The translations under genes were made by a program, and so were the position numbers. A stretch of DNA of 64,000 nt from an uncultured Lachnospiraceae bacterium (GTDB lineage: Bacteria; Bacillota; Clostridia; Lachnospirales; Lachnospiraceae), in NCBI GenBank assembly GCA_947089585.1, contig CAMULB010000001.1, forward strand, positions 440-64,439, read 5' to 3'. Below the pieces are notes generated by a model. It did no database searches, was not told the origin of the DNA, and was given only the letters and a program-made list of their open reading frames with translations. Shown one piece after another: positions 31,088-59,680 of the stretch. Numbering within the stretch: the first letter of the stretch is position 1; each line of letters starts with the position of its first letter.

Positions 31088-34000
31088 CTATTTTATTTTA
31101 ACATATTTTGTAGTGGAATAGCTACTGTAAATTTTTGTACCATTCACAGTCCGATATGCTCGAACCTTGTAATAGTAGCGTTTCTTACTGGTCAGCTTCG
31201 TGTTGGTATAGCTTGTTTTCGTGATAGTCTTGATCTTCTTAAAACCACTCTTGGATTTCGTGCTGCGGTAAATCTCATACCCGCTGGCCCCGGAAATCTT
31301 CTTCCAGCTGATCGTCGCCTGCTTGGATTTCTTAGATTTTAAGGTGATCTTTGGCGTTGACGGCTTGGTACTGGTCTTTACCGTCTTGGTAAAGTTACTA
31401 TAACATTTACGCTTATTCGTTTCATTATAATATCTTACCTTGAAACTGTAGGTCTTTCCTGCCTTGAGGCCGCTGACCGTATAGCTGGTCTTTGTGCCGC
31501 CCTTCACCGTCTTAATCAGCTTATTCTTATTGTCAAAAATCTGATAGCCGCTTGCCAGATCCTGTTTTTTCCAGGAAATCTTAATCTTTGTCGTGCTGGA
31601 CGGCGTCGCCTTCGCGGTTCCTGAAATTGACGGCATCTTAATTGTAAAGTTCACAACCTTGGCGCCCGTCATATTTCCTTTTCCGGTAATCATTACAATT
31701 GCTTTGCCGGGGAACTTGTTATTGCTGTATTTTAAGGAATAATCGGTTCCTTCTTTTAACGTTATACCACCATATTTTACAGTCAGCGCAGGCTTCTGTG
31801 CCTTGGTGTTAAAATTCACCGTTGAAATCTTGGATACGGTCGCCTGTGCCACACTTCGCTTCACAATGTTGAATTGGAAGGTTTTTGAGCCTTTGTAATA
31901 ACCGATTCCTTCAATCTGAATGGATGCCGTTCCGGCATTGACATTGTTGCTGACCGTAACCTTGTAATCCTTCTCCGGCATCAAGGTCTTGCCATAAGCT
32001 GTCACCTTGCCAAGCGGCGGTACAACGGGTGTACCGGTATACAGATACGCATTCACAAGTCCGACTACCTGCAGCCCCGCGCTCACATCCCGGCAAATAT
32101 CAAAGTTTACTACCTTGCTGCCGCCGAATTCAGTTCCGGTTCCGGTAATCGTAATGGATGCCTTACCGGCTTCTACGTTATTGGCGTAAGTCAAGGTGTA
32201 GTCCTTGCCGGCTTCTAAGGTTCTGCCGCCATGACGGACAACCGGTGATGGTGTAATCGCTTTTCCGGTGTAATTTTGAGTTGGAATTGCAGCAACCTCT
32301 GCCTGTGCAAGACTGCCGATAATTGTAAACGTCTTCTGCAGCTCACCTGCATAATTGCCAATACCGGTGATGGTTACTTTCGCTGTATTAATCCCGACTT
32401 CCTGATTGCCTGTGTAGGTCAGGCGATAGTCTTTATTCTGTACAAGCTTAACGCTGGCACGTTGGTTCGGCGCCTGATAAGTTATTTCCAAAGCAGGTGT
32501 GATCGGCTTCCCGGAATATACTTGATTCGGAATGTTGCTTACACTGATCGCACTGTTGGTCAGAGGAAGACTGGCAATCGTAAAATCTACCGATTTTGTA
32601 CCACTGTAGTTTCCTAATAATTTTAAAATGACGGATGCCTTGCCGGCGTTGGTATGATCTGCAGAATAAGACAATTCATAAGTAGTCGGCGGAAGCATCT
32701 GACCCTTCCAGGTTACTTTTACATTTTGAATCTGCTCCAACGTATTGTATACCCGATCTTCGACACCTTCAATCATTACATCATTGATATCAATGTCCAA
32801 TGGCTGAATCCAAAACGCCGCTTTTACGGTCCCGGCATAATTATTGATACCAATCACTTCGATCGTAGCTTCTCCTACATTCGTATTATTCTCGCAGTTT
32901 CCGAGTATATAATCGGTATCCATCTCCAATGTTACTTCTTCATCACCAATTAGTCTGGTGACGATTACATCCTCTGCCTGTGGACGGATCGAATCTCCGG
33001 TATAAATCTGTGGCGGAATATATACGTTGAACTCATCTGGAAATGCTGTCATATCCCGCCCTACAATCATAAACGGAGCGGTTCTTGTGTCGCTGTAATT
33101 ATTGATTCCCTTGATGATTACCGTCGCGTCATTGCTGCCTACCGTCTTGAGATCGCCAGAGTATTCCAGCTTGTAGTCTTCTCCTTCTACCAAAGGCTGA
33201 GGCCGCCCCTCCTGACGCACGATCACTGTTGGATTGATATCGCTGCCGGTATAATAATACTGATCAACAGTTTGCGGCACCGTTCCCTCCATCTCAATGG
33301 TAAAGGTACTTGCGTCTTCGAGAGAAACTCCCTTAATCGTGAAATAAAATCTCATGCTGCCGACATAATTGCCGCTGCCCGGAATATCCGGGTTATAGGG
33401 TGCTCCTTTAATCTCAATATAGGGTGCATTTGTCCCGTTTTCTTCAAAATTACCGCCATTGATATTCTGTCCATAGCGAACAAATTGGAATTCGTTGGTG
33501 CCATTTTTTACAGCTTTTCCATTGTAGCAGAGCATGAGCTGTGCTACATCTGGTTCAACCGGACTACCCGTGTAATCATAATAATCTGCCAAACCTGACA
33601 ATGACATACCAACCTGATTCTCTGCGATACTTAAATCGCGCGGCACAATACTAAACTGCTTTGACTTTTCACCTTCAAAGCCACCATCTTCAATTCCCTG
33701 AATTTTCACAGCTGGACGATTCTTTGTATTTGCCCTTGTTACCTCTGTATTATTGCTATAGCCTGCGATATTGTAATCTTCTCCCAGGATCAATTCCTGG
33801 CCAAAATACGTTACCTTAATCTCCGGCTCTACACCGTCCTGATTATATGGCTGTGCGGGAATATCTGCAATCACAGCATCCTCCAGCTTTCCCCGGATTC
33901 TGAATTTGATCGACTTTGTATCCTTATAATTGCCCTTTCCATCAAGAATAAAGGTTGCCGTTCCTGGTTTTCTGTTGTTCTCATACGTAATCTTATAATC

Positions 34001-37000
34001 TTGTCTGACACTTCCTCCGGGATAAAGCTGTTTGTCACCGTAAAAGATGCCAAAGGAATCCAACTCATTTTCCAGACGAATCTCTCTGCCCTGATGTTTT
34101 GCCTCATAGTACATGCTGAATTTATTATCTTCCAACTCATCCCATTTTTCTACTCCGTTCGTATCCACCGTTCGATAACGGATATGCAAATCCCCTGCAT
34201 TAATCGACTGTGGATTGATGATAAAGGGAACCTTCCTTGTACCAGAGTAGTTTCCATCTTCCCGCGCCTGAATGTAGAAATGCGGCCTGTGATCCTCGTC
34301 TGCGTCTGCTTCCGGCACATTTATATTGGCAATGAGTTCCACTCTATAATCACCGGTCAAGACCACTTCCGGGGGCGTCTCCTCTCCTTCGCCTGTGTCA
34401 CCACCCTCAGGTGTATCTCCGCCTGCTGGAGGCGTCGTTTGCGTCTCTTCTACTTCTTTGAGCTCCTTTTCACCAAACATCAAACGGAATCCCTTCGTAT
34501 CTCCTGTCGGAATAATCTTTCTCGGATCAATCGGATCACCCGTATAGGTATATCCATCTTCCTCAATTCCTTTTATTTTCACTTCCTCATCATCAATCGG
34601 TCTCTGCAAAATAGCAAAGGTCTCTTCGATCGTATCTCCGCCTGTCTTACCGCCAAAGAACAGATTCTGCTTACCCTCTTCCAGCTCCGCATCATCAGCA
34701 GATATGGAAATATGAACTCTGTTATTCACATCGTCCTCTGCACCATGTGTTTTGGTCGCATTAATGTCATCGCCGCCAATCGCGTCTGCATTGTTTGTAA
34801 TCACATAATTCTCAAAAGGAATCGTCTGTGAAAAGTATTTTACAGTGATATCATCCGGGCCCAAAACCTGTTTCTTACCGTTGTATACCTTATTTGCATC
34901 TACGTCGATTTGAACATGCTCTGCATAGGAATTCAAGTCACCCCAAATATTGAAGTTTCTCTCAACTGTTCCGGTGAAGTTGCCTGTTCCTTTGATTACC
35001 AAGGTCGCTACGCCGACCTGGTCGTTGTTTTCGTAAATAATCTCGTAGTCACGGCCCTGTAGCATTTTATCCGTTCCCGCTTCTTCTTTATCTGTAGTAC
35101 TATCAAAATGAATCGTTTCGCCATTGATGGTAATTCCATCATATGTGAATGAAGGTTCTTCAATGGTAATATCACCCTGATCCGTCCAGATTCTTTTACC
35201 CTCTGGATCGTTCTTTTCCGGATACAACACTTCTTCTGGAACTGTAATAAACTGTGTTCCTTCTACATCAGAAATGTTCCGTGGCAGAATTGTAAACGAA
35301 ATTCTCCGCGTACCTGTAAAATTGTTGCCTGTCCCTTGAATTGTGATAAATGCTTCATTTTTTCCGGTTACATCTACATTATTTCTAGTCTCTTCCTCTT
35401 TCAGAATCTTGTAGTCACCTTGCTGCGTAGTTTCATCCCAAAGCTGCAACTCATGACCATTATAAGTGATCTTCATATTGGGATAAATTGGCTGAGCAGT
35501 ATAGACCTGATCTTTCTCATATTCTGGGATTATGTCTTCTTCCGCAATGTTTTTTGGAACAATCTGAAATTCTACTACATTCTTTTGCCCAGTTTCCGGC
35601 ATATAATAATATACATCTTCACCATCTTTTTCTAAAGTAGCTACATATGCTTTCGCTGTTCCTACGTTTATATTATTTTTATCCTCCTTATATTCTAGCC
35701 GAAAATCTGACCCCAGATGTAGTTCTTTAGTTACCTTTTTTTGATCTACCTCCGCCGTATAAATTGCTTCTAAATCACCATCAACTAATTCAATTTCATC
35801 GCCAGTATATACTTTAGGATTGGCAGTTACAGTCATATCCTGCAAGTTTCCCTTGATTATAAATTCCTGTGTAAATGCTCCTTTAAAATTACCTATTCCT
35901 TGTAATTGGATTACCCCTATCCCAGGCTCGGTATTGTTGACATAACCATCTTTTTCTTTTATAGTATAATTTACATTTTCCTCCATTTTATACTCTGAAC
36001 CATCTTCTCTCAGATATGTCAAAGAAAAAGCAGGTTTTACAGCAGTATTAAGCAGTGGGACAAATTCTTTTCCATTATGATCAGTCGAAGCATCTGTTAA
36101 TTTGATTTGAATATGATCCGAATTTATTTTCTGTGCCAGATCCATTTCCGTTATTTCAAAATACAAAACGGTATTATCTTTATAATTTTTATTACCAGTA
36201 ATTGTAACCTTTGCAAGATTTTCCTCTGTTTTACCAGTAGTCTTATCAACGTTCTGATACCAGTCCAAGTTGTAATTTACAACATCACCACTAGTTTCAT
36301 TCTGACTTTCTTTTGGAATTTTTACCCAACTGTTGTTTTGAAGGTGTTCTAATATAATAGCTGGTTGAATCTCCTGAGTTGTATATGTTGTTGTGTAATT
36401 CCCATCGGAATTTTTAGGCAAATCTAATCTTACTCGAATCTTAGCAGCAGTTGCAGTATCACTCACATCAATACTTTGAGGTTGAATCTCAAAAGTAGAT
36501 ATCACCTTTGTCTTATCATAATTTCCAAGACCTGTAATTTTAACAGTAACAGTATTTGACGCCGATATACGCTCTCCATCATACTCAATCTTATAATCTT
36601 TATTATTAACTAATGTTATCTTCTCTCCATTTTGCTTTTCATAACTAATTACCATGGCTTCTTGCCCAATAGGTAATCCAGTATAAGTTGGGCTGCTATC
36701 GAAATTAGTAAATGTAAAATTAATATTGTCGATATCCAGAGGTTTTATTACGAACTCTTTAGGAACTGTACCTGAATAATTACCTATACCCGTTATTGTT
36801 ACCTTACCGGTTCCCGCTTTATTATTATTCGAATAACTTAAAGTATAATCTCTACCCTCCTGTAAAACCGTATTCTTATCCTTGTCTTTTACTACTACTG
36901 TTGTTTTTATCCCCCCTTTGCTATCAAGTCCGGCTTCAAAAGTAGTTTCCTCTACGTCAATGTTTTCCTCCAACAATTCTTGTCTATTTACATTAAAAGG

Positions 37001-38434
37001 TACTTGCTTTGAGTTTTTGAAATTTCCGTTCGAAGAAGGCGTGATCATAAGATTTTTGCTACCTGCTCCATTTTTATCATCTTCTACTATCGCCAATTCA
37101 TAGTCATCTTGTGAAATTGGTTCTTGATTTAACATGACTTTTATCTGATTTTTCAACTCAGGATTATCTAATAAATTTGAACCATCATATTCAACAGTTG
37201 GCAAAATGACATTAACTTTTCCCAGATCTTCTGGCACAATTCTATATTTTTTTGTTATGCTTCCTTCATAATAACTGTTTGGTAAACTATCATCATTAAA
37301 CTTAATTACAAATTCTACATCACCATTCTTACTAACATTTTTACGATCCCCTACATACTCAGATATAAAATCCGTACCTCCTCGAAGAGTATAATCCCCA
37401 TCTACAATTGTTATATACTGTATAATATCTACACCAGTATAAGTTATCTCCTCTTTAAAACCAGAAATTTTTAGTTGTTCTTCATCCGTTATCTCTTTTT
37501 TAATAGAGTAAACAATATCTAACTCTCTTCCTTTATATTCACCTTTTCCTTCCACTTTATAGCTCATTTGACCCGGTCTGGTTGGGATACCAGAAGAAGA
37601 CATTGATCTGATTGTAAAATGATCCTTTTCGTTTAATTCCTCTCCTGTATAAGAATCAATAATAGACAAATCTCCTCTTTTTAGTAGGTCTTGTAAGGAG
37701 TGACTTTGGGCCGAATCATCCAACCAATATGTTAAACCTGGTTGTAGCCCCGCAACTTCCATTTCTCTTGCCAAAACATCAAAAGTAATAGTCATCGAAG
37801 AATTCGATATTGTACAATTTCCCGTACTCCCTGGCCTTACAATAATTTTTCCTTGCTTTTCTCCTACCGTTGTATAATTACCATATTCCCATGTATAATC
37901 ATATTCTTCACCCTCTGCTTCTTCACCTACTTTTACACTTTTTAAGAAATCCTTATTAGAATTGTCAGCTAACTCTAAATTTGGAAGATCATTGATATCG
38001 CCAACTGTCGCCTCTGTTTTGGATAATTTAAAATCTGTACTTTGCAATCTTATTGCTTTAATAGTTACAGTAACAGTTCTTTTCATCTTATTATTTGATT
38101 TTAACGTCATCACGTAACTATACGTACCTTGATTTTTAATTTTTCCCGATTCAATAACTGTAGTACCCTTTTTAACTTCTACATCTATTTGATCTTTAAC
38201 CGACTCTCCGTTCTCATTCTTAATATCATAATCATATTCTTTTCCATTATATTCAAACCCTTTAGCCGGATTCTCTATTTGTTCCCCGTTTGATACTAGA
38301 ATTAAGGAAACATTTGCCAAACTAGTCACTGGATCTGCCGCCCGCACCGACAACGCCGAGAAATCCGCGATTCCCAGCAGCATACATACGCTCATAAAAA
38401 CTGCCAATATCCTCTTCCCTACATCCTTATACAT
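31088..38434 (-). CDS. Giant secreted repeat protein (2448 aa): tandem Ig-like repeats plus two C-terminal FN3 domains
   Basis: Signal peptide (ILAVFMSVCMLLGIADFSALSVRAADP). Roughly 17 repeats end in a G-x-G-N-Y/F-x-G...F-x-I signature. Two FN3-like units (ISWKK..ASGY.I) lie at the C-terminus. There is no sorting motif or TM at the end. Confidence 0.8.
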   Translation of the reverse strand: MYKDVGKRILAVFMSVCMLLGIADFSALSVRAADPVTSLANVSLILVSNGEQIENPAKGFEYNGKEYDYDIKNENGESVKDQIDVEVKKGTTVIESGKIKNQGTYSYVMTLKSNNKMKRTVTVTIKAIRLQSTDFKLSKTEATVGDINDLPNLELADNSNKDFLKSVKVGEEAEGEEYDYTWEYGNYTTVGEKQGKIIVRPGSTGNCTISNSSMTITFDVLAREMEVAGLQPGLTYWLDDSAQSHSLQDLLKRGDLSIIDSYTGEELNEKDHFTIRSMSSSGIPTRPGQMSYKVEGKGEYKGRELDIVYSIKKEITDEEQLKISGFKEEITYTGVDIIQYITIVDGDYTLRGGTDFISEYVGDRKNVSKNGDVEFVIKFNDDSLPNSYYEGSITKKYRIVPEDLGKVNVILPTVEYDGSNLLDNPELKNQIKVMLNQEPISQDDYELAIVEDDKNGAGSKNLMITPSSNGNFKNSKQVPFNVNRQELLEENIDVEETTFEAGLDSKGGIKTTVVVKDKDKNTVLQEGRDYTLSYSNNNKAGTGKVTITGIGNYSGTVPKEFVIKPLDIDNINFTFTNFDSSPTYTGLPIGQEAMVISYEKQNGEKITLVNNKDYKIEYDGERISASNTVTVKITGLGNYDKTKVISTFEIQPQSIDVSDTATAAKIRVRLDLPKNSDGNYTTTYTTQEIQPAIILEHLQNNSWVKIPKESQNETSGDVVNYNLDWYQNVDKTTGKTEENLAKVTITGNKNYKDNTVLYFEITEMDLAQKINSDHIQIKLTDASTDHNGKEFVPLLNTAVKPAFSLTYLREDGSEYKMEENVNYTIKEKDGYVNNTEPGIGVIQLQGIGNFKGAFTQEFIIKGNLQDMTVTANPKVYTGDEIELVDGDLEAIYTAEVDQKKVTKELHLGSDFRLEYKEDKNNINVGTAKAYVATLEKDGEDVYYYMPETGQKNVVEFQIVPKNIAEEDIIPEYEKDQVYTAQPIYPNMKITYNGHELQLWDETTQQGDYKILKEEETRNNVDVTGKNEAFITIQGTGNNFTGTRRISFTILPRNISDVEGTQFITVPEEVLYPEKNDPEGKRIWTDQGDITIEEPSFTYDGITINGETIHFDSTTDKEEAGTDKMLQGRDYEIIYENNDQVGVATLVIKGTGNFTGTVERNFNIWGDLNSYAEHVQIDVDANKVYNGKKQVLGPDDITVKYFSQTIPFENYVITNNADAIGGDDINATKTHGAEDDVNNRVHISISADDAELEEGKQNLFFGGKTGGDTIEETFAILQRPIDDEEVKIKGIEEDGYTYTGDPIDPRKIIPTGDTKGFRLMFGEKELKEVEETQTTPPAGGDTPEGGDTGEGEETPPEVVLTGDYRVELIANINVPEADADEDHRPHFYIQAREDGNYSGTRKVPFIINPQSINAGDLHIRYRTVDTNGVEKWDELEDNKFSMYYEAKHQGREIRLENELDSFGIFYGDKQLYPGGSVRQDYKITYENNRKPGTATFILDGKGNYKDTKSIKFRIRGKLEDAVIADIPAQPYNQDGVEPEIKVTYFGQELILGEDYNIAGYSNNTEVTRANTKNRPAVKIQGIEDGGFEGEKSKQFSIVPRDLSIAENQVGMSLSGLADYYDYTGSPVEPDVAQLMLCYNGKAVKNGTNEFQFVRYGQNINGGNFEENGTNAPYIEIKGAPYNPDIPGSGNYVGSMRFYFTIKGVSLEDASTFTIEMEGTVPQTVDQYYYTGSDINPTVIVRQEGRPQPLVEGEDYKLEYSGDLKTVGSNDATVIIKGINNYSDTRTAPFMIVGRDMTAFPDEFNVYIPPQIYTGDSIRPQAEDVIVTRLIGDEEVTLEMDTDYILGNCENNTNVGEATIEVIGINNYAGTVKAAFWIQPLDIDINDVMIEGVEDRVYNTLEQIQNVKVTWKGQMLPPTTYELSYSADHTNAGKASVILKLLGNYSGTKSVDFTIASLPLTNSAISVSNIPNQVYSGKPITPALEITYQAPNQRASVKLVQNKDYRLTYTGNQEVGINTAKVTITGIGNYAGELQKTFTIIGSLAQAEVAAIPTQNYTGKAITPSPVVRHGGRTLEAGKDYTLTYANNVEAGKASITITGTGTEFGGSKVVNFDICRDVSAGLQVVGLVNAYLYTGTPVVPPLGKVTAYGKTLMPEKDYKVTVSNNVNAGTASIQIEGIGYYKGSKTFQFNIVKRSVAQATVSKISTVNFNTKAQKPALTVKYGGITLKEGTDYSLKYSNNKFPGKAIVMITGKGNMTGAKVVNFTIKMPSISGTAKATPSSTTKIKISWKKQDLASGYQIFDNKNKLIKTVKGGTKTSYTVSGLKAGKTYSFKVRYYNETNKRKCYSNFTKTVKTSTKPSTPKITLKSKKSKQATISWKKISGASGYEIYRSTKSKSGFKKIKTITKTSYTNTKLTSKKRYYYKVRAYRTVNGTKIYSSYSTTKYVKIK

Positions 38435-38643
38435 AGCAACAACCTCCTGTCGAACTCAACTATGCTATACCCTTTGCAAAAGTCAGCAAAAGTGCACACC
38501 CGTTCCATTTCTCATTCCCCGCCGAAGTGTACACATACTCTGATCTATATATCGGTTTTTTCGAGCGAAATATTAAGCCGTTTATTGCTAATATTTTTAT
38601 ATTTCTTCTATCACGAAATCATCTCCAATTGCAATATACCATG

Positions 38644-38770
38644 AAAAAGGTACAGGCCCTTGCACAGTTCGTGCTGTAACAAAGGGCCTTGAGACAATTG
38701 ATGCGTATAGAGTAATTATATCTTACCACAGTCATTTTGTCGAAAGCTGTCGAATTTCATGGTCTAAGAT
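38644..38770 (-). repeat. Two-hairpin repeat element, copy 1 (diverged)
   Basis: It shares the flanks aaaaaggtacagg and ccttgagacaatt with copies 2-4. The hairpin sequence differs but the pairing is kept (aggccctt/aagggcct). Confidence 0.7.
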
Positions 38771-38815
38771 ACTTTATAATCTCCATTCCGTCCTATGACA
38801 TTGAGATCTTCTCAT

Positions 38816-38940
38816 AAAAAGGTACAGGCCCCCGTGCAGTTTACGATACTGCACAGGAGCCTTGAGACAATTAGTACGTTTGGAGTGATTTCATCATACC
38901 ACCATTCGATTGTCGAATGCTGTTGAATCATGTCTCTTAT
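38816..38940 (-). repeat. Two-hairpin repeat element, copy 2 (about 125 nt; candidate sRNA or miniature mobile element)
   Basis: Minus-strand reading: agagacatgattcaacag, then hairpin cattcgacaatcgaatg, a single-stranded stretch, ttgtctcaagg, a 13-bp hairpin, and gtaccttttt. Confidence 0.75.
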
Positions 38941-39085
38941 GTCTAAAAATAATATTTATGATATAAAAATTTTTTTACATGATCCAGATGGGATCTTGAA
39001 GCTATCTAATTTGCGCCATTGCCTGAAAGAATCCGATCGCGTTGCGGAAGCATTTTCCATTTTACAGATCCCGTAATTTTCCAGA

Positions 39086-39210
39086 ATAAAGTACGAGCCC
39101 CCATGCGGTTTACAATCCTGCATGGGAGCCTTGAGACAATTAGTACGTTTTGGAGTGATTTCATCATACCACCATTCGATTGTCGAATGCTGTTGAATCA
39201 TGTCTCTTAC
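39086..39210 (-). repeat. Two-hairpin repeat element, copy 3
   Basis: The 85-nt part distal to the terminator-like hairpin matches copy 2 except for one extra T. The hairpin arms are changed in a compensatory way. Confidence 0.75.
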
Positions 39211-39263
39211 TATCGTAAATCATTGTCGATCTCTTTTTGTCGTATATTTGAATACATCATGAT

Positions 39264-39298
39264 AAAAAGCAAGAAAACAAGCAAATCATTTCTTGTTT
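39264..39298 (-). terminator. Terminator downstream of the Rpn-like remnant
   Basis: Minus strand: aaacaag (10-nt loop) cttgttt, followed by tcttgcttttt. Confidence 0.55.
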
Positions 39299-39310
39299 CC
39301 CTGCTTCTTT

Positions 39311-39934
39311 CTATTCATCGTCTTCGGCTGCACGAAGTTCTTCTTTTGTAAATCCCAGACCAATGATCTGCTCTTGACCAATTCCAGAGGATATCATTCG
39401 TCTGATTAATTTTATTCTTTCTTCGATTCTTCCTTGTTCGTGCCCTTGTTTCAACCCTTGCTCCAGTCCCCGCTCCAGCCATTTCTCAGCCAGCATCTCA
39501 CTTAAGTTGCACATACTTTCGATCCTCCTCTCCAGCGCTACGCTCATTTTGATCCCATAATCCCGTTCCAGCTTTCTCTTTTTTCCAAGCGGCTCTTCAT
39601 CCGACAGCAGCGTTTCCAGCATTGCAATCAGCTGATTCCTTGACTCGCAGACTGCCGCTTTTCCTCGCAGACGGATCACGTATGCTTTAATCAAATCCAG
39701 ATTCCGAAATTCCGGCGCTTCCCCATACAAGCTTCTTCCGGTCAGCGAAATCTCTGCGATCGAATCCTGCTTTTCTTCCTGATCCATCAGAATCCAAATG
39801 CTTCGCACTTTTTTTAGATCGTCATAATTGCTATGGTAAAACTCTACCTGCTTTTGCGCGGATACCATCCGGGACAGGTAATAGAGAATTCTGTTTTCCA
39901 GGTAATAGCCCAGCTCTCCGTGCGCTTCTGGCTT
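39311..39934 (-). pseudogene. 5'-truncated Rpn/YhgA-family (PD-(D/E)XK) recombination-promoting nuclease / putative transposase remnant
   Basis: The open frame back to a TGA at 39935-37 encodes KPEAHGELGYYLENRILYYLSRMVSAQ... and a C-terminal ERGLEQGLKQGHEQGRIEERIKLIRRM tail, typical of the family. The N-terminal nuclease domain is absent. Confidence 0.6.
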
Positions 39935-39985
39935 TCATTATATCATATGAAGTTCCTTCAATACAGGGTAATTTTAGACTTTTTT

Positions 39986-40058
39986 AAAAGATACAGGCTC
40001 CTATCGCGTTTACAATCCTGCATAGGAGCCTTGAGACAATTCGTATATGTGGGATGAT
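39986..40058 (-). repeat. Two-hairpin repeat element, copy 4 (partial; terminator hairpin plus conserved flank)
   Basis: aaaagatacaggctcctat...ataggagccttgagacaatt. It sits immediately downstream of the DEAD-box helicase stop and probably serves as its terminator. Confidence 0.7.
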
Positions 40059-40062
40059 CTCC

Positions 40063-41652
40063 CTACTTCTGATTCGCCGGCTCAATGTTGATAATCTGCC
40101 CCTTAATCTTGGCGTTCGCCATGGCGTGAAGCACTTCTCTTCCATATTCTCTGGGCACTTCGACAAAGGTATAGCGATCATACATATCAATCGCACCCAC
40201 CAGCTTACCCGGCATGCCGCTCTCTCCGGCAATTGCGCCGAGGACATCTCCCGGTTTTACCTTCTGCTTTTTGCCGATGTTGATGAAAAGGCGCACCATC
40301 CCCTCTTCTGCTCCGGTGTCCCCAAAATCAATCTCTCTGGCCGATACGCCTGCTGCCTCCTGCGTTCCCAGTGCAAGCTTTAAAAAAGCAGCGGCAATAT
40401 CCATCGCCGTATGATCGGAGTCATTGACAAACTGCTCGATCATGTCAATCGTCTTGTCAAGATCTTCTTCTTCAATCACGGAATCAATGTTCTGCATGAT
40501 TTTTTCCAGACGCATTTGCTCTACATCATCCATGCTGGGAATGGGACGGGCTAAAATCTTAGTCTTGCAATAACGTTGAATGTCTTTCAGCTTATAGACT
40601 TCCTTTCCCTTGACAAAGGTAAAGGCTTGGCCCAGGCGGCCGGCACGTCCGGTTCTGCCAATGCGGTGCACGTAATATTCATCGTCCTGAGGAAGATCAT
40701 AATTAAAAACAGCTTCTACATCATCTACATCAATGCCCCGTGCCGCTACGTCGGTAGCTACCAAAATCTCTGTTTTTCCATTGCGGAAACCGTTCATCAC
40801 ACGGTCACGCTGGGTCTGCTTCATGTCTCCATGGAGCCCTTCTGCAAAGTAGCCTCTGCCCTGGAGCGCCTGGGTGACTTCATCCACCATTCGTTTGGTG
40901 TTGCAGAATACAAGGGAAAGCTTTGGATCATACACATCCAAAAGGCGGCTTAAGATCTCTACCTTATCCTTGCGTTTTACATCATAATAATATTGTTCAA
41001 TATTGGGAACGGTCAGTTCTTTTTTTACAACCTTGATTGTAACAGCATTTTTCTGATATTTCTTGGTGATTTCCAGAATTGGTTTGGGCATCGTTGCGGA
41101 AAAGAGAATCGTCTGTCGCTCCTTGGGGAGATATTCCAGCACCGTCTCTATATCTTCACGAAATCCCATATTCAGCATCTCGTCTGCCTCGTCGAGCACA
41201 ATTGTAGTCACATGCTCGCAGCGAATCGTCTTGCGGCGCAGATGATCCATCACACGTCCGGGCGTTCCGATGATAATCTGTGCTCCGCCTTTTAAGGAGC
41301 GAATCTGCTTGCCGATATCCTGCCCGCCGTATACCGGCAGTATTTTGATTCCGTGCATATATTTTCCCAGACAGCGAATCTCTTCCGCCACCTGAATGGC
41401 CAATTCTCTGGTCGGGCAGAGCACCATCGCCTGCGTTTTTTTATTCTGACTGTCTACCTTTTGCAAAAGGGGAATGCCAAATGCCGCCGTCTTACCGGTT
41501 CCGGTCTGGGCCTGGCCGATCACGTCGCCGCCCTCCATCACCACGGGAATGGCCCGCGCCTGAATCGGGGTCGTCTCTTCAAAGCCCATCTCTTTGATGC
41601 CCCTCAAAATCTGCGGGTACAAATCCATTTCGTCAAATCTGATTGTTTCCAT
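40063..41652 (-). CDS. DEAD-box ATP-dependent RNA helicase with DbpA-type C-terminal RNA-binding domain
   Basis: AQTGTGKT, DEAD, SAT and HRIGRTGRAG motifs, plus a C-terminal GMVRLFINIGKKQKVKPGDVLGAI domain. Confidence 0.9.
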   Translation of the reverse strand: METIRFDEMDLYPQILRGIKEMGFEETTPIQARAIPVVMEGGDVIGQAQTGTGKTAAFGIPLLQKVDSQNKKTQAMVLCPTRELAIQVAEEIRCLGKYMHGIKILPVYGGQDIGKQIRSLKGGAQIIIGTPGRVMDHLRRKTIRCEHVTTIVLDEADEMLNMGFREDIETVLEYLPKERQTILFSATMPKPILEITKKYQKNAVTIKVVKKELTVPNIEQYYYDVKRKDKVEILSRLLDVYDPKLSLVFCNTKRMVDEVTQALQGRGYFAEGLHGDMKQTQRDRVMNGFRNGKTEILVATDVAARGIDVDDVEAVFNYDLPQDDEYYVHRIGRTGRAGRLGQAFTFVKGKEVYKLKDIQRYCKTKILARPIPSMDDVEQMRLEKIMQNIDSVIEEEDLDKTIDMIEQFVNDSDHTAMDIAAAFLKLALGTQEAAGVSAREIDFGDTGAEEGMVRLFINIGKKQKVKPGDVLGAIAGESGMPGKLVGAIDMYDRYTFVEVPREYGREVLHAMANAKIKGQIINIEPANQK

Positions 41653-55575: not shown

Positions 55576-56979
55576 TTACACCTTTAGAGGTGAAAACCAG
55601 ATTTTTATTTCCGTACCTTTTCCTTCCTCGCTGATCAGCTCCATCTCGGCATCGTGCTGGGTCACAATATGCTTTACAATCGCAAGCCCCAGCCCGGTGC
55701 CGCCGCTCAGCTTGGAACGGCTCTTATCCACACGATAAAATCGTTCAAAGATCCTTTTTTGATGCTCTTTTGGAATTCCGATTCCAGTATCCTTGACTGA
55801 CAGCAGCACCTTCTCTGCTTCCCGACAGACAGAAAGTGTCACACTCCCGCCCCGATTATTGTAACGTACCGCATTGCTGCAAAGATTATATAATAACTCG
55901 TCGATCAGACTTTTATTGGCTGCAATCACACAAGCTTCTCCCTTTAAAATCAGCGATATCTCCTGTTTTCTTGCCTGCAGCTCCATCATATCCAAGCAGC
56001 CCTGCGCGGCCTGATACAGATCCATCGCTTCCTTCTCATATCCATGCTCCTTTTGCATATTGCCTCTTGAAGCATAATCCTGTTCCAGCTCATCCAGCTC
56101 TGAAAGCTTGATAATGTCGTTGATTAAAGTCAAAAGGCGCCCTGAGCTCTGACAAATCTCCTTGGCAAAATGGGCCGCATCCTCTTCCCCCGCCATCCCG
56201 CTGCCAATTAATTCTGCATAACCAGAAATCGCCGTCAAGGGCGTTTTTAGCTCGTGTGACACATTAGCCGTAAATTCCTGACGCATCCTGGCGTGATCAA
56301 GCAAATTCCTGTGCTGTTCCTTGATTGTCTGAATAAAGGGCCGAATCTCCTGATAAATCTCTTCTTCCTGAGCACCGTCTAAATGATCCGCCATACGCTC
56401 AATGGGAAAAAGAAGCCGTTTGGTCAGAAAATGGGACAGCAACGCGCAGGCTCCCAGCGTAATCACGGACAAAAAGGCTATCAAAAGTACGGTATTTTTT
56501 AAGATATAATAAATACTGGCAGAATCCTTCCCCACCCTCAGAATTCTTCCGTCCGTCAGACGAAACGCATAATACAAGGTGTGCATGGACACCGTATGGG
56601 AGGTTCGCACTGCCATTCCCTCGCCCGCTTCCATAGCCTGCAAAATCTCAGGCCGCATCTTATGATTTTCCATGTTGTTTTGATCGGCAATGCTGTCAAA
56701 AATGACCTTGCCGGAAGGCGCAACCAGAGTGATACGCAAACCATCCTTCTTTGGATCATATTCATCCTCTATCATCTGCACGCCATTCGCTTTTGCATGA
56801 GAGCTCTCATCCGTCATTCGCAAATCCTGTAGCTCACAAATCATATGAGCGTAAGATTTGAGATCGTCGTAAACCTGATTTTTAAAGATCGAAAAAAATA
56901 AAAGCGTCAGACCTGCAGCCGTCACCAAGATTGCAATTGCCGCAACCAGCAAAAATTGAAAATTAATCCGCGTTTTCAT
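55576..56979 (-). CDS. Sensor histidine kinase (PhoR-like architecture)
   Basis: Two TM segments, H-box SHELKTPLT and G2 box GGTGLGLAIVKH. I prefer the start MKTRINF at 56979; the in-frame alternative at 57093 runs through the palindromic element. Confidence 0.85.
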   Translation of the reverse strand: MKTRINFQFLLVAAIAILVTAAGLTLLFFSIFKNQVYDDLKSYAHMICELQDLRMTDESSHAKANGVQMIEDEYDPKKDGLRITLVAPSGKVIFDSIADQNNMENHKMRPEILQAMEAGEGMAVRTSHTVSMHTLYYAFRLTDGRILRVGKDSASIYYILKNTVLLIAFLSVITLGACALLSHFLTKRLLFPIERMADHLDGAQEEEIYQEIRPFIQTIKEQHRNLLDHARMRQEFTANVSHELKTPLTAISGYAELIGSGMAGEEDAAHFAKEICQSSGRLLTLINDIIKLSELDELEQDYASRGNMQKEHGYEKEAMDLYQAAQGCLDMMELQARKQEISLILKGEACVIAANKSLIDELLYNLCSNAVRYNNRGGSVTLSVCREAEKVLLSVKDTGIGIPKEHQKRIFERFYRVDKSRSKLSGGTGLGLAIVKHIVTQHDAEMELISEEGKGTEIKIWFSPLKV

Positions 56980-56986
56980 ACCTCGT

Positions 56987-57078
56987 CGAACGTAGTTCGC
57001 CCGCCCCTTGGGGGCTTGCTTTTCGGTATACCCTTTGGGTATACCTTTCCGAACGTAGTTCGCCCGCCCCTTGGGGGC
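56987..57078. repeat. 92-bp multi-hairpin palindromic element between the RR and HK genes
   Basis: A 29-bp direct repeat cgaacgtagttcgcccgccccttgggggc occurs at 56987-57015 and 57050-57078. Each copy contains 2 short palindromes. They flank the central palindrome ggtataccctttgggtatacc (57025-57045). Confidence 0.9.
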
Positions 57079-57097
57079 CTGATTTACTTTCATCCAT

Positions 57098-57772
57098 TTA
57101 CTCCTTCATGGAATAACCTACGTTGCGCACGGTTTTGATCGCGCCGCCGGCCTCCCCCAGCTTCTGCCGGAGTGTTTTGATATGCATATCGACCGTTCGG
57201 CTTTCTCCTTGATATTCAAAACCCCATACCTGATCCATTATCTGATCGCGTGTCAGCACGATTCCCCGGTTCAAAAGCAGCATTTTCAATAGTTCAAATT
57301 CCTTGTAGGTCAATTCGCATACCGCCTGATCTACCGAAACAATGCGCTTTTTACTGTCCAATGCAATACGTCCATTGGTCAATATCGTCTCCTCTTCAAC
57401 CTCTTTGGTGCGGCGCAGCAAAGCTTTTACCCTGGAGATAAGTTCCATTATACCAAAGGGCTTGGTCATATAATCGTCCGCTCCCAAATCCAGCCCTTTT
57501 ACCTTATCCATCTCCAAGGCTTTAGCCGTAACCATAATCACCGGAATGGAACGGGTGGCAGGATCGTGCCGAAGCATTTTCAAAACAGACAGCCCGTCCT
57601 CTCCGGGAAGCATGATATCCAACAAAATCAGATTCGGAATCTGCTGCTCCAATGCCTGACACAGCTGTTCTTTACAGCTGAATTCTTCTGTTTCAAATCC
57701 GCTGTTTTTGAGTGCATAACGCTGTATTTCCCGGATATTCACATCATCTTCTACAATATAGATCAAAGGCAT
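57098..57772 (-). CDS. OmpR/PhoB-family response regulator
   Basis: Receiver domain (IYIVEDD...LLDIMLPGEDG...TAK) plus a winged-helix domain (RTVDMHIKTLRQKL). Confidence 0.9.
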   Translation of the reverse strand: MPLIYIVEDDVNIREIQRYALKNSGFETEEFSCKEQLCQALEQQIPNLILLDIMLPGEDGLSVLKMLRHDPATRSIPVIMVTAKALEMDKVKGLDLGADDYMTKPFGIMELISRVKALLRRTKEVEEETILTNGRIALDSKKRIVSVDQAVCELTYKEFELLKMLLLNRGIVLTRDQIMDQVWGFEYQGESRTVDMHIKTLRQKLGEAGGAIKTVRNVGYSMKE

Positions 57773-57798
57773 CTTTTTCTCCTATTCTCCATGAAGCA

Positions 57799-59568
57799 TC
57801 AGGGCAAGATATATTGGTGCCGATACTGCTCTAACATACGGTCAAACCGCTTCTTGGATTCGTTCTTCAATTGATTCATATATTCATGTGCCTCAAAGCT
57901 GCTGTCCTCAATCTGAATGAGATAAACCGCCAGATTCGAGCAATGATCGGATACTCTCTCATAGTTGGTTGCAAGATCCGAAAGCAAAAGTCCCAGCTCA
58001 ATCGTACACTTTCCATTTTTCAGACGCTTAATATGGCGCTTTTTCACATCTTTATTTAACTCATCCACCACTTCTTCCAACGGCTCCACGCTCAATGCCA
58101 GCTGATGGTCCTGGTTGATAAACGATTCAATAGAACGATTTAAAATTTCTTCCACCGCGCCGCCGTATATGCGAAGCTCCTTTTTCGCCTTGTCGGAAAA
58201 TTGAAGATTCTTCCTGTGCAATTCCTGGGCGAGTTCCATCGTATTGACCGCATGATCGGCAATTCGCTCCAGATCTCCAATTCCATGCAGCAGCGTGGAA
58301 ACATGCTGGCTCTCTGCATAATTCAAATCCCGGCTGTTGAGCTGCACCAGATATGCGCTCAATTTGTCGTCATATTTATCCACCAGATTTTCCATTTTCT
58401 CGACCTGCGCCGCCGCCTGGTCAGAGTAATTTTCAAATAATTGCATGGATGCAACCATTGCTTCGCGCGAAATCCTTGCCATTTTATAGGTCAAGCTGCG
58501 GCATTGTTCAATTGCAAATCCCGGTGTTGCCAAAAAACGACTGTCCAGCAGAACGAATTCATCCTGTTCTGACTGTGCTTCCCGTTCTTCTTCTGTAACC
58601 GGCAGAGTGAGATAAGCCAGCTTTTCCAACAATTTTGTAAATGGAAGCAGTACGATTGTGGCAAAAATATTAAAAATGCTGTGCACCAAGGCAATACCTG
58701 CCACTCCGACCTGCTGATCTACAAATGAAAAATCAAACAATGCGTTTAAAATATAATATAGAATCAAAAACACAAATGCACCGATGATGTTAAAATACAG
58801 ATGCACAAATGCCGTCCGCTTTGCGCCCTGGTTTGCACCCACAGAAGAGACCATAGCCGTTACACAAGTACCGATATTTTGGCCCATAATAATCGGAATC
58901 ACAGAGCCAAAGGTAAAAGCGCCTGTCACGGACAACGCCTGCAAAATACCGACAGAGGCTGAAGAACTCTGAATCACCGCCGTCAGCAGCGCGCCGACAA
59001 GAACGCCGAGAATTGGATTGGAAAATTTCGTCAGAATTCCGGTAAACTCAGGTACATCGGCCAAGGGCTTTACGGCTGCACTCATGGCGTCCATTCCAAA
59101 CATCAGCACTGCAAAGCCAAGAAAAATACTGCCAATATCTTTTTTCCGGTCTTCCTTCCCACTCATCAGAAAAATAATACCGATCAAAGCCAAAATTGGG
59201 GAGAAGGAAGTTGGCTTCAACATACGAATGAAAAAATTATCTCCTTCCAATCCAGAAAGACTCAGAATCCAGGATGTAATTGTGGTTCCGACATTGGCGC
59301 CCATAATAATGCCAATTGCCTGCGACAGCTTCATAATGCCGGAATTGACAAAGCCCACCAGCATCACAGTTGTTGCTGAAGAAGATTGAATTACAGCTGT
59401 TACCCCTGCGCCCAGCAGCACCGCTTTCAACGGATTGGAAGTTAGCTTTTCCAAAATTCGCTCCAGCTTTCCTCCGCTCAAACGCTCCAATCCCCCGCCC
59501 ATCACATTCATACCATATAAAAAAAGTGACAGTCCTCCGATCAGGGACAGCAAACCAAAAAGATCCAT
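57799..59568 (-). CDS. Na/Pi cotransporter family protein with C-terminal PhoU-like domain
   Basis: Duplicated QSSSAT/QSSSAS motifs and a PhoU-like helical C-terminus. The start MDLFGLL at 59568 lies 8 nt after AGGAGG. Confidence 0.85.
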   Translation of the reverse strand: MDLFGLLSLIGGLSLFLYGMNVMGGGLERLSGGKLERILEKLTSNPLKAVLLGAGVTAVIQSSSATTVMLVGFVNSGIMKLSQAIGIIMGANVGTTITSWILSLSGLEGDNFFIRMLKPTSFSPILALIGIIFLMSGKEDRKKDIGSIFLGFAVLMFGMDAMSAAVKPLADVPEFTGILTKFSNPILGVLVGALLTAVIQSSSASVGILQALSVTGAFTFGSVIPIIMGQNIGTCVTAMVSSVGANQGAKRTAFVHLYFNIIGAFVFLILYYILNALFDFSFVDQQVGVAGIALVHSIFNIFATIVLLPFTKLLEKLAYLTLPVTEEEREAQSEQDEFVLLDSRFLATPGFAIEQCRSLTYKMARISREAMVASMQLFENYSDQAAAQVEKMENLVDKYDDKLSAYLVQLNSRDLNYAESQHVSTLLHGIGDLERIADHAVNTMELAQELHRKNLQFSDKAKKELRIYGGAVEEILNRSIESFINQDHQLALSVEPLEEVVDELNKDVKKRHIKRLKNGKCTIELGLLLSDLATNYERVSDHCSNLAVYLIQIEDSSFEAHEYMNQLKNESKKRFDRMLEQYRHQYILP

Positions 59569-59680
59569 GCTCATTACCTCCTTGCATTTCAATAGTGTTA
59601 TAGTATACCCAATAAGTAAAGTCAATAGCTATTTTGAGTAAAATCTGTGTAAAATAATAAAAAAGCGAACGATCTTAAGA

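Follow-up and report, generated by a model that had tools for sequence, protein, structure and literature searches.

The 64,000-nt stretch of DNA analysed here (the window; contig CAMULB010000001.1 of assembly GCA_947089585.1) belongs to an uncultured Lachnospiraceae bacterium from the mouse gut and carries, between the stop codon of a DEAD/DbpA helicase gene and the start of a giant fn3 adhesin gene, a cluster of four related units, all on the minus strand (copy 4, 40062..39986; copy 3, 39209..39085; copy 2, 38939..38816; copy 1, 38766..38644). The cluster may represent a local family of candidate sibling small RNA (sRNA) genes, each of them a short transcription unit, a reading which is put forward tentatively and with a little less than even confidence. 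Transcription of copies 1-3 would start ~20-27 nt before a GC-rich hairpin and would stop at this hairpin and the U-run that follows it, yielding RNAs of ~65-72 nt. The 5' part of these RNAs, including the near-invariant AAUUGUCUCAAGG, would remain unpaired and could serve as a seed or as a landing site for proteins. In copy 4, this RNA module lacks a promoter and would be produced as part of the helicase mRNA, whose 3' end, i.e. 3' untranslated region (UTR) and terminator, it would form.

The four-copy repeat family

Following inspection of the minus strand of 40400..38300, the 14-mer AATTGTCTCAAGGC was found to occur exactly four times in the 64 kb, every time in a repeat unit, as compared to ~0.0005 exact matches expected by chance. 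A covariance model built from the leader, hairpin and tail (R1) scored the four copies at 88-102 bits (E 1e-16 to 1e-18), and a search of the window with filters off returned, beyond these, a next match of only E 1.6. Together, these results show that the core of the initial observation, namely four related copies in one orientation, is correct and far beyond chance. The copies occupy 1.4 kb of the window, and each consists of the exact 14-mer, a GC-rich hairpin, a GUAYY tail and then 4-5 U, with the following coordinates.

38644..38766, minus strand: copy 1, full unit (R1 89.9 bits)
38754..38738, minus strand: copy 1 tandem boxes, TTCGACA-GCT-TTCGACA
38743..38738, minus strand: copy 1 predicted -35 element, TCGACA
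38720..38715, minus strand: copy 1 predicted -10 element, TATAAT
38699..38686, minus strand: copy 1 14-mer core, preceded by the leader; hairpin at 38689..38654
38653..38644, minus strand: copy 1 tail, GTACCTTTTT
38816..38939, minus strand: copy 2, full unit (R1 102 bits), terminator-like in the scan
38927..38911, minus strand: copy 2 boxes, TTCAACA-GCA-TTCGACA
38893..38888, minus strand: copy 2 predicted -10 element, TGAAAT, or alternatively TGG-TATGAT 4 nt upstream
38872..38859, minus strand: copy 2 core; 15-bp hairpin at 38862..38826, then tail GTACCTTTTT
39085..39209, minus strand: copy 3, full unit (R1 88 bits)
39197..39181, minus strand: copy 3 boxes; predicted -10 element at 39163..39158 and core at 39141..39128
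39130..39096, minus strand: copy 3 hairpin with two G-U pairs, then tail CGTACTTTATT
39986..40062, minus strand: copy 4, promoterless (R1 90 bits), directly after the helicase stop codon
40041..40028, minus strand: copy 4 core, preceded by the leader; hairpin at 40031..39995, then tail GTATCTTTT

Copies 2 and 3 had been said to match outside the hairpin. This holds 5' of it, where their ~85-nt halves are identical bar one extra A in copy 3, but not 3' of it, where the tails differ (GTACCTTTTT vs GTACTTTATT). The position of copy 4 directly after the helicase stop codon and the placement of copies 3 and 4 on either side of a truncated Rpn-family gene are as first described. The spacers between copies are mutually unrelated and non-coding, since an open reading frame (ORF) starting at 39060 acquires a stop codon in other strains; no ORF conserved across strains was found in units or spacers. 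A scan of the window against Rfam gave no match at the gathering score and only E>4 miRNA/snoRNA noise at a permissive threshold, in agreement with the first-pass annotation, in which the units were not recognised as a known RNA family.

Conserved hairpin, predicted single-stranded feet and promoter-like module

On the minus strand, structure constrains the evolution of the terminal hairpin. Across eight distinct sequences (the four paralogs, strain variants and copy A of the more distant lineage L083), 93.5% of the cells of a 12-pair helix are standard pairs, and 4 of the 12 pairs are altered on both sides between sequences, which bears out the first-pass annotation in that the hairpin differs between copies yet stays paired. 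Pairing drops to 22-56%, or 31-62%, in controls with slid partners, and many of the hairpin intermediates are G-U. The sense (minus-strand) hairpin is at least as stable as its antisense counterpart in all eight variants (within 0.1 kcal/mol where not better), with an advantage of at least 4 kcal/mol in four of them, and predicted folds give stems of 10-15 bp at -18 to -29 kcal/mol. Single-nucleotide polymorphisms (SNPs) between strains retain pairing in the stem, as with A-U to G-U at 40023 in copy 4 and U-G to C-G at 38679 in copy 1, and a further one (38668) falls in the copy 1 loop.

Upstream of the stem, the first 20 nt of the RNAs are 71-90% unpaired according to fold prediction. A closing helix of 4 bp may form between the leader GUAC and the tail GUAC, with one compensatory change (AUAC:GUAU in copy 4) and with copy 1 pairing at only three of the four positions. 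The two-hairpin anatomy originally described, which added a small hairpin (CATTCGA-CAA-TCGAATG) and a longer-range GAGACA/TGTCTC helix, is not a property of the family, as both are confined to copies 2 and 3, and neither copy 1 nor the two L083 copies (A and B) have them; the small hairpin is moreover disrupted by the uncompensated strain SNPs 39177 G>A, 39179 T>A and 38907 G>A.

Several candidate identities of the hairpin were considered. The copy 1 hairpin (UUGUUAC...GCAA) may resemble a ribonucleic antiterminator (RAT) target of the BglG/LicT type. RAT hairpins overlap the 5' arm of a terminator, the hairpin here being the terminator itself, and no PRD protein was found among the ORFs scanned. 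A dif/Xer-like site was rejected, the loop ATTGTAAAC and the arm TCCTA resembling dif by eye, with a spacing unfit for a 28-bp dif site. A CsrA decoy was likewise rejected, GGA being found only in the loops of copies 3 and 4.

The conservation profile, calculated as mean pairwise identities among copy 1, copy 2 and L083-A, is sharply partitioned. Identity reaches 1.00 in the proximal box, 0.95 in the 14-mer core and 0.90 in the 3' foot and tail, followed by 0.73 in the leader, 0.70 in the -10 region, 0.57 in the stem and loop (with pairing kept), 0.47 in the promoter spacer and 0.25-0.41 in the flanks. These islands are visible between old paralogs and between orthologs alike, and their sharpness argues that a promoter element and the two single-stranded feet of a structurally conserved hairpin are being selected; recency or gene conversion alone would be an insufficient cause.

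The 5' module of copies 1-3 is a predicted sigma-A-type promoter. Copy 1 carries the motif TCGACA-17-TATAAT (11/12 match), copies 2 and 3 carry TCGACA-17-TGAAAT or, four bases upstream, TGG-TATGAT, L083-A has its motif in an equivalent register and L083-B shows GTGACA-17-TATAGT. In copies 1-3, the -35 element is the second of two 7-nt direct repeats, TTCRACA-N3-TTCGACA, with the -10 element 17 nt later, and tandem boxes of this kind are found nowhere else in the window. All five full copies of two lineages have an identical proximal box, which is the best-conserved block of the unit. Strain SNPs in the module occur only between the boxes (38747/38745 in copy 1) or between -35 and -10, and SNPs avoid both the promoter hexamers and the 14-mer core. 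In copy 4, the module is replaced by helicase coding sequence, which does not resemble the promoter modules to a significant degree.

On the opposite strand, TTCGACA reads TGTCGAA, the 0A box of Spo0A, here arranged 7-3-7, suggesting that the promoters may be gated by Spo0A~P, with repression as the most likely effect since the boxes overlap the -35 element. The 0A box TGTCGAA is recognised also by Clostridioides difficile Spo0A (PMC3485338), and the Spo0A-repressed site at promoter A2c of phages phi29/Nf comprises two boxes 3 bp apart that overlap the core promoter, a TGTtGAA variant included (PMC2731898). The presence of a SpoIID gene in the window points to a sporulating lineage. Spo0A control of the candidate promoters is regarded as a lead only; TCGACA matches five of the six positions of the -35 consensus, so that conservation of the box may reflect promoter function alone.

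Distribution, rival readings and neighbouring genes

Contigs retrieved via the helicase and the Rpn fragment represent four strain lineages of the species and share one layout of four copies, spaced 888-912, 269 and 173 nt apart. The sole exception is L017, in which 270 bp between copies 3 and 2 were deleted by recombination in the identical 5' halves, and no insertion polymorphism was seen between the sampled strains. The same G>A at the equivalent sites 39177 (copy 3) and 38907 (copy 2) in the same strains indicates gene conversion between these copies. One assembly contig (L021, ERR5532482) ends at its position 2794 exactly at the copy 4 U-run, which hints at strain variation in that sample from there on, and other contigs break in the 5' halves that copies 2 and 3 have in common. 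The more distant lineage L083, whose adhesin allele is 69% identical, has two copies upstream of the adhesin gene. Its copy A is the ortholog of copy 2 (90% identity from -10 through the core), with the core AATTGTCTCtAGGC and a new 13-bp stem showing further compensatory changes.

Beyond this clade, the search for further copies returned chance matches only. The pattern AATTGTCTCAAGGC-N24-46-GTAYYTT had 16 matches in 185,579 GTDB species genomes, one in IMG/VR and 22 in JGI metagenomes, all of them coding or unstructured, and blastn ('distant') of copies 1-3 against plasmids and phages gave none. The nearest named helicases, from Lachnospiraceae bacterium 3-1 and JLR.KK009, are 85% identical, and in species whose helicases are 92%, 89% and 85% identical the stop codon is followed by unrelated DNA without the element, comprising a PepSY gene, rubrerythrin/FUR, or an Eco47II-type restriction-modification system with methylase and endonuclease (L022:7590-10000, L025:7590-8400, L028:7596-10000). 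In the 92% relative, the adhesin-sortase genes lie ~10 kb further downstream. No element was present at the locus of the closest full-length Rpn homolog (L079-L082). The repeat family is confined to one small clade, and the DNA 3' of the helicase, differing in each of the related species examined, marks a recurrent rearrangement or integration hotspot in which the 1.4-kb repeat segment is clade-specific. An R1 match in L022 (20 bits, E 0.15) has a TATAAT, hairpin and GTATCT architecture but no core and was treated as chance. This arrangement, the only weak R1 match outside the family, lies at the border of a two-gene insertion (a 75-aa protein and DUF4258, toxin-antitoxin-like) by which close strains differ (L022:8600-9300 vs L024:8600-8700) and which starts within a terminator.

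In such a hotspot, the copies could be functionless debris, i.e. duplicated terminator and promoter fragments homogenised by gene conversion, whose hairpins persist because any terminator tolerates compensatory change or quasi-palindrome template-switch mutation. The synteny break at the helicase 3' flank, a nuclease pseudogene within the segment, the visible conversion between copies 2 and 3, the recombinational deletion in L017 and the restriction of the family to one small clade would all fit. We nevertheless consider this explanation decidedly unlikely, as box, core and tail at 0.90-1.00 stand beside segments at 0.25-0.57, both in paralogs that are ~64% identical elsewhere and in orthologs of two lineages. 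Conversion tracts would not spare exactly these three blocks time and again, and neither the strand-specific G-U pattern nor the avoidance of hexamers and core by SNPs would be expected of debris.

A mobile or recombination-derived origin, either as a miniature inverted-repeat transposable element (MITE) or PATE-like element, as the first-pass annotation had offered, or as att-site repeats accreted by tandem integration at the helicase 3' end (CIME-like), appears highly improbable. The separation of the copies by unrelated spacers, the bounding of a species-specific segment by copies 4 and 1 as direct repeats, the two kinds of left side, helicase end or promoter module, that accompany an identical core and the single orientation of all copies are compatible with such an origin. 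However, the units lack terminal inverted repeats, IS200/IS605-like end hairpins and target duplications, a 6-bp GAGACA/TGTCTC match in copies 2 and 3 being the nearest approach to inverted ends. The ORFs examined (~16 to 47 kb) include neither a transposase nor an integrase, and further copies were found neither in the rest of the window nor in any collection scanned. From core to core, the 'elements' would span only 173-270 bp without cargo, the layout is fixed in all strains sampled, and the hairpin side has diverged with compensation, whereas fresh att duplicates would be identical. In an attC/att test, the 5' and 3' flanks were not inverted copies of each other and no recombinase was present among the annotated neighbours. 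Integrative elements often leave displaced 3' ends of genes; the possibility that the 5' modules are displaced helicase 3' ends was rejected, as their local alignment was no better than that of shuffles.

The sRNA family suggested by the first-pass annotation is lent support by the promoter-like modules of copies 1-3, the invariant box, the stability of the sense-strand hairpin and the conserved 14 nt, predicted to be single-stranded. Several observations weigh on the other side. An mRNA target was sought among the 44 translation-initiation regions of the window and none was convincing; the best seed duplexes did not surpass those formed by shuffled seeds, with the adhesin site placed 11th to 17th. 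Only ~6 distinct copies from two lineages are available, so that the covariation statistics rest on few independent events, and L083 copy B, the ortholog of copy 1, is degenerate (16 bits), indicating that not every copy is maintained. The likeness of the 3' end to an intrinsic terminator, claimed at the outset, extends to the GC-rich hairpin and is less clear for the U-tract, which is short (4-5 U) and offset from the stem by 5 nt of conserved GUAYY. Rho-independent terminators are expected to have a U-tract of ~7-9 nt directly after the stem, and a simple terminator scan was passed by copy 2 only. Finally, the stretch from copy 1 to the adhesin start contains no predicted sigma-70-like promoter, either in the window or in L083; copy 1 may thus be part of the adhesin 5' leader, and this would favour a role in cis.

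The units may alternatively be viewed as leader attenuators of the adhesin-sortase operon, a possibility that is unlikely in our judgement and is the main rival to the sibling-sRNA reading. The operon would be transcribed from P1 of copy 1 and from P2 and P3 further upstream, the hairpins would be premature, leaky or factor-controlled terminators with short RNAs as by-products, and the single-stranded feet (14-mer and GUAYY) would bind an antitermination or termination factor. Apart from the missing alternative promoter, this is in line with the units preceding the adhesin gene in the same orientation in both lineages that have them, with the conserved feet flanking the terminator stem and with the weak, offset U-tracts, which suggest partial termination. 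Relatives without the element have TATAATTAC 275 nt upstream of the adhesin ATG, as compared to 281 nt for P1; the position alone is suggestive, but the similarity is not significant (p about 0.08), and orthology of P1 with the adhesin promoter of these relatives was not retained. Against a role in cis, copy 4, with the same core and hairpin, ends an unrelated gene ~1.6 kb from the adhesin, the 20-nt leader offers no obvious antiterminator fold, and no gene for an RNA-binding antiterminator was seen among the annotated neighbours.

Should the sibling-sRNA reading hold, it could be extended to a Spo0A-gated battery placed between the helicase and a hypervariable adhesin, with one sibling serving as the helicase 3' UTR. 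The battery would couple the sporulation decision to adhesin expression through the 14-nt foot, acting in trans on mRNAs or as a shared platform for a termination or antitermination factor. This full scenario is speculative and, taken as a whole, improbable. Almost nothing is known of small-RNA regulation in Lachnospiraceae, a dominant and hard-to-culture gut family. If expressed, the cluster would provide a compact and testable example of sibling sRNAs in this family, with a possible link from Spo0A, the sporulation master regulator, to the control of a giant strain-variable adhesin, and a case in which a gene terminator and free-standing sRNA genes share one origin; if not, it would simply be a neat illustration of how terminators and promoters are duplicated in a recombination hotspot.

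The genes and further elements around the cluster are as follows.

40063..41652, minus strand: DEAD-box/DbpA RNA helicase gene, its transcript predicted to end in copy 4
39311..39868, minus strand: 5'-truncated Rpn-family (PDDEXK_2) fragment between copies 4 and 3, with its own predicted extended -10 and terminator
38448..38454, minus strand: an extra perfect TTCGACA (0A-box reverse complement) immediately 5' of the adhesin Shine-Dalgarno, kept in L070, L073 and L083
31088..38434, minus strand: giant fn3 surface-protein (adhesin) gene, 2448 aa, 210 nt downstream of copy 1; a sortase gene is next

The Rpn fragment matches TIGR01784 (E 1e-5) over the C-terminal half only, full-length homologs having 313-323 aa with PF12784. 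Its C-terminal 185 aa are preceded by an extended -10 motif, TGATATAAT, near 39935 and followed by its own terminator (39305..39265), and strains differ by in-frame 12-nt indels in a GLEQGL-type repeat (39449-39461). Instead of being a dead pseudogene, the fragment may still give rise to a small C-terminal protein.

Adhesin alleles only 42%, 69% or 77% identical (P0187, P0186 and P0185), the L083 allele being the 69% one, occur in strains with an identical helicase and an upstream region that is ~99% identical (L017, L078 and L083). Divergence begins ~100 nt into the ORF (window 31088-38337) and the downstream sortase gene is retained, a hypervariability that looks like allelic replacement or antigenic variation. 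The adhesin 5' leader (38435-38625) is conserved (L070:3868-4003, L073:298-430, L083:705-843), also across lineages without repeats. In this leader, CAUAGU (38464..38459) can pair with GCUAUG (38437..38432), enclosing the Shine-Dalgarno and start codon, in a helix which is invariant and hence without covariation support. Inspection by eye pointed to a hairpin with a long loop, GUGUACAC...GUGUGCAC (38534..38492; CGUAUAC...GUAUACG in L073), ahead of a U-rich run, which RNAalifold did not reproduce. Elsewhere in the window (55576-59625, minus strand), an OmpR-family response regulator and a histidine kinase, probably phosphate-sensing, lie beside a Na/Pi cotransporter-PhoU fusion gene; this regulator was briefly considered for the direct-repeat promoters and no link was found.

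Comparison with known systems

With MITEs, PATEs and REP-like repeats, the units share their nature as short (~125 nt), non-coding, hairpin-containing repeats. Unlike these, they are not dispersed, have no inverted termini, target duplications or cognate transposase that could be found, and show no presence/absence variation between strains. The resemblance to ordinary Rho-independent terminators lies in a GC-rich stem-loop and U-run on the coding strand, in the placement of copy 4 exactly at a gene end and in the compensatory and G-U evolution of the stem. In contrast to such terminators, conservation is far higher in the 14 nt 5' of the stem and in the GUAYY on its 3' side than in the stem, a gap of 5 nt separates stem and U-run, and three copies have a predicted promoter, rather than a gene, within ~25 nt upstream.

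The candidate promoters have their closest parallel in Spo0A-controlled promoters with tandem 0A boxes, such as the phi29/Nf A2c site 0A-1 (PMC2731898) and those of abrB and spo0A (PMC3485338). These have in common with copies 1-3 perfect TGTCGAA core(s), here on the opposite strand, the 3-bp box spacing, the overlap with the core promoter and the TGTtGAA variant, found here in copies 2 and 3, whereas the distal box is degenerate in L083 A and B.

Multicopy sibling sRNAs have been reviewed (PMC4211561) and include the LisR-dependent LhrC1-5 of Listeria, which repress the adhesin LapB (PMC4132741), and the pneumococcal csRNAs under CiaR (PMC4507080). The units described here have no sequence or Rfam relationship to these RNAs, their predicted products are much shorter (~65-72 nt, with one hairpin), their conserved block contains no UCCC/anti-Shine-Dalgarno motif and found no target pairing in the window, and one copy is promoterless and located in a 3' UTR. 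What they share with LhrC1-5 and the csRNAs, as predicted here from sequence, is an arrangement of adjacent paralogous short RNA genes, each with its own terminator and its own promoter bearing a direct-repeat site of the response-regulator type, together with a short single-stranded block conserved among siblings and a position of the cluster beside a cell-wall adhesin locus.

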